Positions 6,453 through 24,446 of a stretch of DNA of 64,000 nt are shown here, in pieces. The translations under genes were made by a program, and so were the position numbers. Source of the stretch: Escherichia coli phage vB_EcoM_Shy; the sequence record MT833282.1; one strand, 5' to 3'. The notes under the pieces were generated by a model. The model saw only the letters and a list, made by a program, of their open reading frames with translations, searched no databases and was not told the DNA's origin. Position 1 is the stretch's first letter. Each line of letters begins with the position of its first letter.

Positions 6453-7187
6453 ATGAAAGAGATGACAGAACAAGGTAAGGAGATTTTTAGTCTCTTAAAA
6501 ACCGGTAGAGGGTTTTCTAATCCCCTTATTACTGGTGCAGCAGTTCTCGGTGGAACCGTAGCTGCCTCTACATCACTTGTAAGCTCTATTAGCTCTGTAA
6601 CAGACCCTACAATAAAGGATAAACTTGTTGCTGCTGGACTTACAACAGTTCTGCTTAACAGCTTTACAACGAGTCTGACAAGCACTACATCGACTACTAA
6701 AACGCTGACAGATTATGGTCAAAAGTCTATTGATGAGTTTTCATCACGTATGCAGGTAGCAAAAGGATATTCCAATGTTATGGGTGCAGCAGGAGAACAA
6801 GTCGGTTGTACGCCATTTAGTGGTATTATGGGCGTTGCTACAGAGTATGGTCAAAAAGCTATTGATACGATTAACAGTGCATTAGACGGTGTTAATGATG
6901 TATTAAGTGACTTACAAGACGCTATTGACAAAGGTCTTGATACTATTTCTGATTTAGCTAACCAAGCTGTTAGTAAGATTAATGAAGGTATCTCGAAGAT
7001 TACAGCTTATGCAGATGAAGTTGTGCAGATGATTGAAGAAGAAGCTGCCCTTATTGCAGAGTACCTTAAAACGAATATCAATGGGTTCTTAGCAGGTATC
7101 TTACCAGACTGGTTTGATGATGCTTGTAAAACTGGTGTAATTGATACTATTGCAACACCAGAAATGAAGAACGCATTACAGAAATAA
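6453..7187 (+). CDS. hypothetical protein (Ser/Thr-rich N-terminal half)
   Basis: ORF-track ORF 6390-7187 trimmed to the first ATG after tRNA-Phe, with RBS aaagg upstream. Confidence 0.55.
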   Translation: MKEMTEQGKEIFSLLKTGRGFSNPLITGAAVLGGTVAASTSLVSSISSVTDPTIKDKLVAAGLTTVLLNSFTTSLTSTTSTTKTLTDYGQKSIDEFSSRMQVAKGYSNVMGAAGEQVGCTPFSGIMGVATEYGQKAIDTINSALDGVNDVLSDLQDAIDKGLDTISDLANQAVSKINEGISKITAYADEVVQMIEEEAALIAEYLKTNINGFLAGILPDWFDDACKTGVIDTIATPEMKNALQK

Positions 7188-7188
7188 T

Positions 7189-7281
7189 GGAAGATTAACC
7201 CTAAAAGGTAAGGGAGCAGTTTGCTAAACTGCCAGTAGCTGAGAAATCGGTGTACCAGTTCAAGTCTGGTATCTTCCTCCA
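7189..7281 (+). tRNA. tRNA-Ser(GCT), long variable arm
   Basis: 93 nt; anticodon stem-loop gcagt-ttgctaa-actgc, long variable arm, T arm accag-ttcaagt-ctggt, CCA; starts 2 nt after the preceding stop codon. Confidence 0.65.
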
Positions 7282-7285
7282 ATTT

Positions 7286-7361
7286 GAATCCGTGACAGAA
7301 ATGGCTATGTACCTGTCTGCAAAACAGGTTTATAAGGGTTCGAGTCCCTTCGGATTCTCCA
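7286..7361 (+). tRNA. tRNA-Cys(GCA)
   Basis: acceptor gaatccg/cggattc, anticodon stem-loop cctgt-ctgcaaa-acagg, T arm aaggg-ttcgagt-ccctt, CCA. Confidence 0.7.
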
Positions 7362-15562: not shown

Positions 15563-15960
15563 GACTCTTAAACAGACACAGCTTTGTAGTAAAGCGCAAA
15601 GCCTCTGAAGATGGTTATTACAATGATGATGGTGATTGGGTAGCTTCACAAGATATTGTAGAGGTTAACTGTAAAGGTAATATCCAGCCATATATCAAAG
15701 GTTCTGTAAAGAATGGTACACAGATTGCTTTACCGGAAGGTATCAGACTTACCGATACAAGAATCCTGTATACTACATATAAACTTAGAACTTCAGATGA
15801 TGTAGAGTGGAATGAGTCTGACATTGTTATGATTGATGGTCATGAGTATGAAGTATTTATGACTATGGATTGGTCACAGCAATTAGCCCATACGTCCCAT
15901 TATGAATATATCATTATTAGAAGGGATAAAATGAATGCAGTTAGAAACAGCAGAACTTGA
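15559..15960 (+). CDS. hypothetical head-tail joining protein
   Basis: 133-aa ORF, overlapping start/stop. Confidence 0.55.
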   Translation: MRLLNRHSFVVKRKASEDGYYNDDGDWVASQDIVEVNCKGNIQPYIKGSVKNGTQIALPEGIRLTDTRILYTTYKLRTSDDVEWNESDIVMIDGHEYEVFMTMDWSQQLAHTSHYEYIIIRRDKMNAVRNSRT

Positions 15961-16534
15961 AAAAGGTCTAGTTAGAACCTTAGTGGATGTTATTGGTCAC
16001 AGACTAGCTCGTGATAAAAATAATAGACCAAATGTAATTAGAGCTTACCCTTCTGATAACTCAAATGACAAAGGTTTAAAACCTGACCAGCCATTTATTA
16101 CCGTATATTGTCAAGACGCTGCAACACCTTATGGTTGGGTTCTTGATAAGTTTGTTGAGGATGATGTAGTTTGCTACAGAATTGCTTTTCAGATTCCAGT
16201 ATTAATTACGGTAAATGGTAAAGGTGCTCACAGTATTATGCTTGAGCTTAAACAACGATTAGAGATGAGTTCAGTCAGAGATTTAATTCTTGAAGAGACA
16301 GGAGCTACAGTTTTAGACACTGGAGCTATCCCAAATGACTACACTTATCTTAATACAGATTTCGAAAATTCTGCACCTCTTGTTGTAACTCTTGTAAAAA
16401 ATTCAGTCCTGAAAGATGAACGTGGAAGTATTATTGAGCGTGTCATTGTTGATGGTGAATTAGTTTACGAAGAAGGACAAGAGCCACCAGAATATACTAT
16501 CCATCTAGATGTAGACTCCAAAGGGGTAAAATAA
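15935..16534 (+). CDS. hypothetical tail completion protein
   Basis: 199-aa ORF. Confidence 0.55.
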   Translation: MQLETAELEKGLVRTLVDVIGHRLARDKNNRPNVIRAYPSDNSNDKGLKPDQPFITVYCQDAATPYGWVLDKFVEDDVVCYRIAFQIPVLITVNGKGAHSIMLELKQRLEMSSVRDLILEETGATVLDTGAIPNDYTYLNTDFENSAPLVVTLVKNSVLKDERGSIIERVIVDGELVYEEGQEPPEYTIHLDVDSKGVK

Positions 16535-17887
16535 ATGTGGAATCCAATTGTTAATGTAGATATTACATTGAACACCGCAGGAACTACAAGAGAAGGTTTT
16601 GGGCTGCCACTATTTTTAGCTTCAACAGATAACTTTGAAGAAAGAGTCCGTGGTTACACTTCCTTAACTGAAGTTGCTGAAGATTTCGATGAAAATTCTG
16701 CTGCATATAAGGCTGCTAAACAACTTTGGAGTCAGACTCCTAAAGTAACTCAGCTTTATATTGGTAGACGTGCTATGCAGTACACTGTATCAATTCCTGA
16801 TGAGGTTACTGAGAGCACCGACTATTCTTTAACTGTAGCTGTGAGCGGTGGAGTTTCTCAGCCATTCCAGTACACTTCACAGTCAGAAGATACTGCTGAG
16901 AAGGTGCTACAGCAGCTTAAAACTCAGATTGAAGCAGAACCTTCTGTAAAAGACCTTGTTACTGTCAATGTAACTGGTGCTGGCGGTTCAGCAACAATGG
17001 TAATCACCAAAGCTGGTGTCAACGACTTCGTGAAGGTTACTACTACAGCACAAACAGTGTCAATTGCAAGCACAACTGCTGACACAGCATCGACTGCTCT
17101 GGCAGCTATTGAAGCGTATTCAACTGACTGGTATTTCATTGCAGCAGAAGACAGAACTCAACAGTTTGTCTTAGCAATGGCTTCTGAGATTCAAGCTCGT
17201 AAGAAGATTTTCTTTACAGCTAACTCTGATGTAGCAGCACTGCAAGGTACAGAATTAGCCAGTGCAAATGACGTTCCAGCACAACTTGCTAAGAATAAGT
17301 ACACTCGTACAGTTTGCTTGTGGCATCACACAGCAGCAGAAGACTACCCAGAAATGGCTTATATTGCTTATGGTGCTCCGTATGATGCAGGTTCAATTGC
17401 TTGGGGTAACGCACAGCTAACTGGTGTAGCTGCTTCTCTACAGCCATCTAATCAGAGACCTCTGACAAGTATTCAGAAGTCAGCTTTAGATGCACGTCAC
17501 TGTAACTTTATTGACCTTGATGGTGGTGTTCCAGTGGTTCGTAGAGGGATTACTTCTGGTGGGGAATGGATTGATATCATCCGTGGTGTTGACTGGTTAG
17601 AATCAGACCTGAAAACTTCTCTGAGAGACTTGCTAATTAACCAGAAGGGTGGTAAGATTACTTATGATGATACTGGTATTACCCGTATTCGTCAAGTCAT
17701 TGAAACCTCTCTGCAAAGAGCAGTCAACAGAAACTTCCTGTCATCTTACACAGTTAATGTTCCTAAAGCCTCTCAAGTTGCTTTGGCAGACAAGAAAGCT
17801 CGTATCCTGAAAGATGTTACCTTCGCAGGTATCTTAGCAGGGGCTATCTTGGATGTTGACTTGAAAGGTACAGTGGCTTACGAATAA
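16535..17887 (+). CDS. tail sheath-like major tail protein
   Basis: 450-aa ORF followed by a 148-aa tube-sized ORF, chaperone pair and tape measure (P2 FI-FII-E/E'-T order). Confidence 0.6.
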   Translation: MWNPIVNVDITLNTAGTTREGFGLPLFLASTDNFEERVRGYTSLTEVAEDFDENSAAYKAAKQLWSQTPKVTQLYIGRRAMQYTVSIPDEVTESTDYSLTVAVSGGVSQPFQYTSQSEDTAEKVLQQLKTQIEAEPSVKDLVTVNVTGAGGSATMVITKAGVNDFVKVTTTAQTVSIASTTADTASTALAAIEAYSTDWYFIAAEDRTQQFVLAMASEIQARKKIFFTANSDVAALQGTELASANDVPAQLAKNKYTRTVCLWHHTAAEDYPEMAYIAYGAPYDAGSIAWGNAQLTGVAASLQPSNQRPLTSIQKSALDARHCNFIDLDGGVPVVRRGITSGGEWIDIIRGVDWLESDLKTSLRDLLINQKGGKITYDDTGITRIRQVIETSLQRAVNRNFLSSYTVNVPKASQVALADKKARILKDVTFAGILAGAILDVDLKGTVAYE

Positions 17888-17902
17888 TAGAGGTAAATTG
17901 GA

Positions 17903-18349
17903 ATGGCTATGTATCAGCAATATTCCCCTAAAGACGTTGTGTGTAGCTGGAATGGTATTGCCATTGAAGGCTTTGCCCCAGATTCATTCTTACGTCTACA
18001 GAGAACATCACCACTTGTGACACCAGTTGTAGGTGCAGGTGGTCAGGTTGCTCTGACAAGAAATGCAGACAAGACAGGTACTATTGAGATTGAGCTAATG
18101 CAGACTTCTCTCTCTAATCAGATGCTTTCTGCAATTCAAGCTAAACAAGACAATATGGAACTTGAAGAAGATATCTCTTCTAACTTCGTAATCTACGACC
18201 CATCAGGCTCTGTTCTGGCAACTGGTATTAATGCTTGGTTGCAGGAATTACCACAGATTGAACTTGGTCGTGACCAGAACTCTAAAACTTGGATTTTTGG
18301 TTGTGAGAAGCTAGACTATACTTCTACAATTCCAGCGTCAAGTGTTTAA
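17903..18349 (+). CDS. tail tube protein (putative)
   Basis: 148-aa ORF after sheath-like gene; terminator follows at 18362. Confidence 0.55.
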   Translation: MAMYQQYSPKDVVCSWNGIAIEGFAPDSFLRLQRTSPLVTPVVGAGGQVALTRNADKTGTIEIELMQTSLSNQMLSAIQAKQDNMELEEDISSNFVIYDPSGSVLATGINAWLQELPQIELGRDQNSKTWIFGCEKLDYTSTIPASSV

Positions 18350-18361
18350 TAAATCCTATAA

Positions 18362-18393
18362 GGGGGAGACTTTAAAAGGTCTTCCCCTTTTTT
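18362..18393 (+). terminator. rho-independent terminator
   Basis: gggggagac-tttaaaag-gtcttcccc then tttttt. Confidence 0.6.
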
Positions 18394-18421
18394 GTTTCTT
18401 TTAAAGTATTAAGGAATCACA

Positions 18422-18820
18422 ATGAAAACAGAATCTAGAGTAATTAATGGTAAGAAAGTAAATATCGTTCTGCTTGGGGCAAGAGATGGTATTAAGATGT
18501 CTATGAAGTTGGGTAAAATTGTTGTTCCAACCTTTGCACAGATGCTGTCAAGCCTGACTGATAAAGATAAGAAAGAAGCTCCAATGGTTCCATTTAAAGA
18601 ACTTGTTGAAGCTTGTTTTGACAGAATTGAAGAAATTAACCTTGAAGAAATGGCTACCATGTTATTTCAAGGGGCAACTGTTGATGACTTCCCACTTAAT
18701 ATTGATACATACTTCCAAGCAAACTACGGTGAATTTATTGATTACTTAGCATTTGCGCTGGAGGCAAACTTCGGAAGTTTTTTCGAAGCAAGCATTTTCA
18801 AAAGCCTAACTTCTCAGTAA
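18422..18820 (+). CDS. tail assembly chaperone (gpE/gpG-like)
   Basis: 132-aa acidic ORF directly upstream of tape measure. Confidence 0.55.
   Translation: MKTESRVINGKKVNIVLLGARDGIKMSMKLGKIVVPTFAQMLSSLTDKDKKEAPMVPFKELVEACFDRIEEINLEEMATMLFQGATVDDFPLNIDTYFQANYGEFIDYLAFALEANFGSFFEASIFKSLTSQ
18778..18784 (+). other. candidate -1 programmed ribosomal frameshift site (T TTT TTC)
   Basis: slippery heptamer X XXY YYZ in zero frame of 18422-18820; the -1 frame is open from here through ORF 18823-19062. Confidence 0.45.
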
Positions 18821-18822
18821 AC

Positions 18823-19061
18823 ATGGGTAATACTCTACAGACACCACTGACTGATGCTGCTGTAGAGGCAACCTATGAAGAAGCAGACGAGATGAAATTT
18901 GTGCTTGCTATTTATGGTATGGAAGGGTGTAAAGAAACACTTGACCAACTCTTTGCTATGACATTCTCTGATTTATTATCATTGAGACAATTTCTTGAGA
19001 TTCAGAGGTCGTATAAAGAGGAAATTGCTTACAACGAACTTAGAAGAGCAGGAAAAATGTA

Positions 19062-19062
<1 letters not shown>
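18823..19062 (+). CDS. tail assembly chaperone extension (gpE'/gpT-like), probable frameshift product
   Basis: 79-aa ORF in -1 frame relative to 18422-18820, ends at tape measure start. Confidence 0.45.

Positions 19063-24446
<5,384 letters not shown>

Follow-up and report, generated by a model that had tools for sequence, protein, structure and literature searches.

[quoted passage not shown]

The DNA analyzed here, a stretch of 64,000 nucleotides from Escherichia coli phage vB_EcoM_Shy (record MT833282.1; hereafter the window), carries a pair of tail assembly chaperone reading frames at positions 18422 to 19062, placed between a tube-like gene and the tape measure gene. The surrounding bases, 17900 to 19300, are 99.6% identical to Escherichia phage SP22, which assigns the phage to Felixounavirus, and they share 95 to 99% identity with some 200 Felix O1-like phages that infect Escherichia, Salmonella, or Shigella. 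Upstream of the pair are the genes for the neck terminator (15935 to 16534), the sheath (16535 to 17887; phrog_205, 2e-125), and the tube-like protein (17903 to 18349; KPP10_Orf10, phrog_280). On the other side, the tape measure protein gene occupies 19062 to 21290 of the plus strand (Pfam TMP_3, 9.9e-17; phrog_4036, 1532 bits), and a gene for a Dit-like protein lies 3′ of it. A terminator scan identified a strong intrinsic terminator on the plus strand in the gap between the tube-like and chaperone genes (about 18360 to 18399), with a 13-bp stem, six GC pairs, and a T-run; the same site is annotated as a terminator in phages wV8, AYO145A, and Mijalis. It probably reduces how much the chaperone and tape measure genes are transcribed and expressed, compared with the sheath and tube genes.

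The first reading frame of the pair (ORF1, 18422 to 18820, plus strand, 132 amino acids) has codon starts congruent to 2 mod 3. The Shine-Dalgarno (SD) sequence AAGGA (18411 to 18415, plus strand) lies 6 nt 5′ of its ATG and would serve a single start for both of the products considered below. The second reading frame (ORF2, 18823 to 19062, 79 amino acids) is in the −1 frame relative to ORF1, and its ATG stands two bases past the ORF1 stop codon, TAA. Direct reading of the sequence places the heptamer TTTTTTC at bases 18778 to 18784 of the plus strand, 34 nt 5′ of the ORF1 stop. Its first base is the third base of a Ser codon, AGT, and the Phe codons TTT (18779 to 18781) and TTC (18782 to 18784) follow, so the register T_TTT_TTC is that of a zero-frame X_XXY_YYZ motif. 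On translation, the −1 frame opens at 18742, after a TGA at 18739 to 18741, and closes at the stop codon at 19060 to 19062. The ORF1 frame and the −1 frame are therefore both open from 18742 to 18817, with the heptamer inside that stretch, and the +1 frame is closed throughout. These readings confirm what the initial annotation had claimed of the locus, namely, that the heptamer is in the zero frame near the end of ORF1, that the −1 frame is open from there through ORF2, and that the pair stands directly upstream of the tape measure gene, the TMP_3 gene starting at 19062.

Standard zero-frame decoding of ORF1 gives a short tail assembly chaperone of 132 amino acids, TAC-N. A −1 shift on the heptamer would give a longer one, TAC-NC, predicted as join(18422..18784, 18784..19062) and 213 amino acids in length. 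The predicted junction reads ...ANFGSFF|RSKHFQKPNFSVNMGNT... (also given as ANFGSFF|RSKHFQ...), and the GluC peptide predicted to cross it is ANFGSFFRSKHFQKPNFSVNMGNTLQTPLTDAAVE. The −1 part of TAC-NC (18784 to 19062, plus strand) comprises 92 amino acids, RSKHFQKPNFSVNMGNT...GKM and then the stop; it is supported by translation, by the match of ORF2 to phrog_4963, and by a joined coding sequence in the record of phage Mijalis that is described below. The listed ORF2 is just the 3′ portion of this part. The TAC-NC stop codon overlaps the tape measure ATG by one base (TAATG).

ORF1 matched the Pfam family Phage_TAC_15 (PF21822) with 71.7 bits against a cut-off of 22 (E 1.1e-19) over profile positions 1 to 124 of 127, and it matched phrog_1613, "tail assembly chaperone," at 2.6e-49. 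The database homologs of the chaperone all carry PF21822. ORF2 gave no Pfam match at an E value of ≤0.01 and matched phrog_4963, which is also named "tail assembly chaperone," at 2.8e-55. When the 213-amino-acid fusion was used to search a protein database, the matches were TAC-N homologs of 124 to 136 amino acids only, and a search by sequence for relatives of solved structure returned none (best E value, 0.62).

The heptamer on its own is weak evidence for recoding. In-frame X_XXY_YYZ motifs are common, occurring 59 times in the 15,797 codons of the plus-strand ORFs of the window, and at that rate there is about a 9% chance of encountering one in the 25-codon overlap. The heptamer could thus have arisen by chance and cause no recoding, in which case the −1 ORF would be either a small independent gene or nonfunctional. 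Among the 74 such heptamers on both strands of the window, however, only the one at 18778 to 18784 has at least 50 open −1 codons after it, and it has 92.

The decisive evidence came from relatives of the locus. In total, 78 loci were gathered from annotated phage records, IMG/VR contigs, and one Erwinia metagenome-assembled genome (MAG), the IMG/VR contigs being located with an alignment of diverse chaperone homologs. Two were set apart: Escherichia phage CL1, in which the frames are fused, and one contig (L030) that keeps the heptamer and ends before the −1 stop. The remaining loci represent 47 distinct −1 parts, which range from 35 to 65% GC and down to 23% protein identity. The motif NNT_TTT_TTY was present in register and within the open −1 stretch in all 47, including each of the 20 lineages that fall below 50% identity. 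Measured from the slip site, the −1 parts are 78 to 105 amino acids long regardless of the ORF1 stop, which lies anywhere from 27 to 132 nt downstream, and they align as homologs of one another across lineages. At the 11 distant loci whose ORFs were tabulated, the −1 stop falls no more than about 45 nt from the position at which the next long ORF starts, with an overlap between the two frames in 5 cases; in four of five distant loci scanned, the upstream gene belongs to the same tube-like family as that of the window. A search for prophage copies in bacterial genomes found one locus, that of the Erwinia MAG, with the same heptamer.

The initial annotation had stated that a slippery site not conserved in relatives would speak against a frameshift, and conservation is what was found. 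Over 20 lineages of less than 50% identity and a wide range of GC content, the heptamer persists at the same position, the −1 frame stays open, and the −1 part keeps a similar length. ORF2, in addition, falls in a conserved phage family, phrog_4963. The comparative data effectively refute a chance heptamer, to which we give next to no credence.

The slip site is under nucleotide-level selection. The codon before the T-run is AGT in most loci, TCT in eight, and ACT in one, and its third base is always T. The sole locus with ACT, which encodes Thr (IMGVR_UViG_3300028410_000099, bases 1831 to 1839), has kept the third-position T, which points to a constraint on nucleotides rather than on amino acids. 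In the 15 high-GC loci, the neighboring genes use NNT for Ser at a frequency of 0.17 and TTT for Phe at a frequency of 0.27, yet NNT_TTT is found in 15 of 15. With one representative for each of the 20 lineages of less than 50% identity, the chance probabilities multiply to 10^-17, a figure that overstates independence because the loci are phylogenetically related but that is still decisive. One of the two peptide patterns used for collecting distant loci was ExNF[GS]SFF, so the presence of Ser-Phe-Phe is partly subject to ascertainment bias, but the choice of codons is not. In a blastn search, Erwinia phages resembling phiEa21-4 matched the query DNA only at 18767 to 18807 (92.7% identity). 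This is a 41-nt island of DNA similarity centered on the heptamer, shared with phages whose chaperones are about 40% identical in protein. We regard the conservation, which goes far beyond chance, as decisive evidence for the predicted frameshift. It also illustrates cleanly how selection acts on the nucleotides of a recoding site, with the third-base T and the TTT fixed in 20 lineages over a 30-point GC range, and it therefore offers a reliable landmark for locating the site across the Phage_TAC_15 family.

The same codon data bear on the proposal that the locus contains two separate genes, with ORF2 translated from ATG 18823 by termination-reinitiation and the heptamer merely encoding a conserved Ser-Phe-Phe. 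The closeness of that ATG to the ORF1 stop, its retention in 23 of 27 close relatives, and the separate genes annotated in most database records are all in keeping with such a proposal. However, a conserved peptide does not call for synonymous Ser and Phe positions that are fixed against a strong GC bias, nor for a Thr codon at one locus. No Shine-Dalgarno sequence precedes ATG 18823, and its AUG is base-paired within a local hairpin. A 98%-identical relative (IMGVR_UViG_3300045988_004167) has ATA in place of the ATG, 45 nt after the heptamer, and the listed ORF2 start is thus dispensable. In the Erwinia and Yersinia loci and in most of the distant ones, a start near the ORF1 stop is lacking, and the first −1 ATG lies 111 to 207 nt past the slip site or is absent. 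At every locus, the −1 frame is open upstream of any ATG as far back as the heptamer. We find two separate genes very unlikely. The comparison indicates that ORF2 is not an independent gene, and some separate ORF2 product made by reinitiation at ATG 18823 is possible.

An extra T that fuses the two frames was found by blastn with a 60-nt query in 1 of 292 phage records, that of Escherichia phage CL1 (OK040806.1). This record has seven T's at 1179 to 1185, a site that corresponds to 18778 to 18784 of the window, instead of six, and its chaperone is a single 642-nt in-frame coding sequence. The seventh T reflects either a sequencing error in the homopolymer or a rare mutation that leaves the chaperone always fused. 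The rarity of fusion indicates that selection keeps two frames, as is expected if both the short and the long forms are needed.

An extra T in the transcript would have the same outcome as the one in the CL1 record, and the 213-amino-acid protein might accordingly be encoded by a fraction of mRNAs in which RNA polymerase has added one U on the T6 run. Such transcriptional slippage yields exactly the fused ORF, and from sequence alone it is inseparable from ribosomal slippage. A weak terminator-like stem also stands directly 5′ of the T-run, at 18758 to 18774 (CTGGAG/CTTCGG, six pairs including G-T). It is at chance level, however, as the terminator scan found 2 such stems against 1.3 expected. 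The efficient cases in bacteria involve runs of about nine A's or T's (PMC5009743), whereas each of the 47 distinct loci has a run of six to eight T's here and the runs show no tendency to lengthen, which makes transcriptional slippage unlikely. In addition, the motif is the textbook heptamer for tandem slippage, in register, and the cases of P2 and lambda, which are alike in arrangement, are reported as translational frameshifts. We consider slippage by RNA polymerase extremely unlikely and ribosomal frameshifting the preferred reading.

The initial annotation had suggested a search for a downstream stimulatory hairpin or pseudoknot. Folds of the single sequence and of an alignment detected none. 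The 50 nt after the heptamer fold at −3.2 kcal/mol, no better than shuffled sequences (z = +0.95), and eight aligned Ounavirinae sequences had a consensus fold of −1.33 kcal/mol and almost no covariation. A 100-nt fold had a minimum free energy of −24.5 kcal/mol (z = −1.74) and contained only a distal hairpin. That hairpin (18822 to 18877, plus strand), which begins 37 nt past the heptamer, pairs the ORF2 AUG (18823 to 18825) and includes a perfect 8-bp stem, CTCTACAG/CTGTAGAG. We rejected it as a classical stimulator, since it is too distant, its z score is not significant, and it is not conserved in the eight-sequence alignment fold. Mooglevirus relatives have a different hairpin, ACCCC...GGGGC, at its position.

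Upstream of the slip site, an internal SD-like GGAGG (18760 to 18764, plus strand) lies 13 nt 5′ of the heptamer and is a candidate −1 stimulator. An SD sequence located 5′ of a slip site stimulates −1 shifting when the spacing is 9 to 14 nt (PMC5009743). An SD-like 4-mer with a spacer of this length was present in 39 of the 47 distinct loci but in only 2.4% of control windows. The element overlaps a conserved Leu-Glu-Ala/Val motif, of which the Glu codon is GAG rather than the synonymous GAA in 12 of 17 lineage representatives, a modest excess over the 7.4 expected. The terminator-like stem described above covers the GGAGG as well. The Erwinia and Yersinia phage relatives lack the SD-like element. 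It is plausible that GGAGG helps slippage, as a helper and not as a requirement. In this respect, the locus may resemble Escherichia coli dnaX and the insertion sequence (IS) elements, but the dnaX-type cassette also includes a 3′ stem-loop 5 to 9 nt downstream and the heptamer A_AAA_AAG, and here there is neither, with a U-run instead.

A broader proposal, which we put forward tentatively and hold to be doubtful, is that the −1 shift of the Phage_TAC_15 family is tuned by an internal SD-like GAGG or GGAGG 13 nt upstream and not by 3′ RNA structure. If this is true, it would be a structure-free, SD-stimulated U-run frameshift conserved across phages of 35% to 65% GC. The papers on phages Moogle, Mijalis, and Adele, discussed below, mention neither the upstream SD-like element nor the evidence from synonymous codons. 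The window carries a cluster of 26 tRNA genes at 2281 to 7361. Two of them, tRNA-Phe(GAA) at 6361 to 6436 and tRNA-Ser(GCT) at 7189 to 7281, read the slip-site codons UUU and UUC and the preceding AGU, respectively. The phage tRNA-Phe(GAA) and tRNA-Ser(GCU) might contribute to SD-tuned slippage.

Given the observed frames, register, and gene context and the selection seen on slip-site nucleotides, we consider it very probable that a programmed −1 ribosomal frameshift yields the TAC-N and TAC-NC proteins of this Felix O1-like myovirus. Every ribosome would initiate at ATG 18422, and the majority would decode to the TAA at 18818 to 18820 and release TAC-N. A minority would slip back one base at U_UUU_UUC (18778 to 18784), where the tRNA-Phe(GAA) molecules occupying the P site and the A site would re-pair to UUU UUU. 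After the slip, the codon CGA at 18784 would be read, and translation would continue to the stop at 19060 to 19062, giving TAC-NC. By analogy with the lambda G/GT and P2 E/E+E′ proteins, the short form would cover the tape measure protein in many copies, the long form, which is rare, would recruit tube subunits through its −1-encoded domain, and neither form would be present in the virion. A literature search found no experiment that showed the fusion protein of a Felix O1-like phage.

The slippage, presumably ribosomal and possibly aided by the upstream GGAGG, is likely to be inefficient. In E. coli, UUN and AAN are the most shift-prone A-site codons, and the heptamers that shift best are homogeneous ones, whether all pyrimidine or all purine (PMC4066793). 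In the same organism, however, a U-run heptamer is a weaker slip site than A_AAA_AAG (PMC5009743). The weaker heptamer, together with the lack of a downstream structure, points to a probably low shift efficiency, and this fits a low-level shift such as that of lambda G and GT, at about 30:1.

The initial annotation had described the locus as the conserved G/GT (P2 E/E′) arrangement. This held for gene order, frames, register, and conservation, but not for sequence homology to P2 E, of which none was found; the sole Pfam match of ORF1 at an E value of ≤0.01 was Phage_TAC_15. P2 and the phage studied here are both myoviruses with a sheath, a tube, a chaperone pair, and a tape measure, the order in P2 being FI-FII-E/E′-T. 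In each, the first ORF has a U-run heptamer close to its end, TTTTTTG in P2 and TTTTTTC here, with only the last base differing. No downstream hairpin accompanies P2 E/E+E′ (Christie et al. 2002, summarized in PMC3091744), and the chaperone gene of vB_EcoM_Shy likewise has none. The products differ in size, 91 and 142 amino acids in P2 against 132 and 213 here.

The lambda G/GT system was described by Levin et al. (1993) and Xu et al. (2004, 2013, 2014). There, translation from one start, with low-level −1 slippage close to the 3′ end, gives short and long proteins at a fixed ratio of about 30:1; the short part is the partner of the tape measure protein and the −1 domain that of the tube protein, and both proteins are absent from virions (reviewed in PMC5009743). 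The logic is the same here, although the ratio and the interactions are measurements made with lambda. Three features of the G/GT-type genes of Xu, Hendrix, and Duda (2004), namely, the location, a −1 overlap that is independent of a start codon, and a conserved in-register heptamer, were found at this locus. For a pair of this type, both products would also be expected to occur in a fixed ratio, to be required for tail assembly, and to be missing from the virion. Lambda is a siphovirus with the heptamer G_GGA_AAG and a chaperone of a different protein family, whereas the phage here is a myovirus with a U-run and a Phage_TAC_15 protein.

Frameshifting in this gene has been noted before. According to the genome papers of the Felix O1-like Citrobacter phages Moogle (PMC4319497) and Mijalis (PMC5543628), each of these phages has a translational frameshift in its tape measure chaperone, and the GenBank record of Mijalis (KY654690), about 81% identical in DNA to the window, gives a joined coding sequence on the same AGTTTTTTCGA site. 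Moogle and Mijalis have the same gene, heptamer, −1 ORF, and position between tube and tape measure, with no biological difference from the locus described here. A 2025 paper on Pseudomonas phage Adele reported that 159 genomes of Vandenendeviridae and 231 of Andersonviridae, the family of Felix O1, share a conserved GTTTTT slip motif and an uninterrupted −1 frame (PMC12846349). In light of these reports on Moogle, Mijalis, and the Andersonviridae, the frameshift is already known at the comparative level. It raises no new biological question. In long-tailed phages, frameshifting of the chaperone gene is textbook knowledge, and it is ordinary here.

The main value of the result is for annotation. 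The 79-amino-acid ORF2, here and in most of roughly 290 related GenBank records, is best annotated as the 3′ part of a 213-amino-acid joined chaperone rather than as a gene of its own. Most Felixounavirus records, those of the closest relatives of the window included, present two separate genes or "hypothetical proteins." Several give the chaperone a wrong name, such as "head closure protein" or "tape-measure protein." In Erwinia phage phiEa21-4 (EU710883.1), the −1 extension at 1570 to 1805 is unannotated and appears as an "intergenic" gap.
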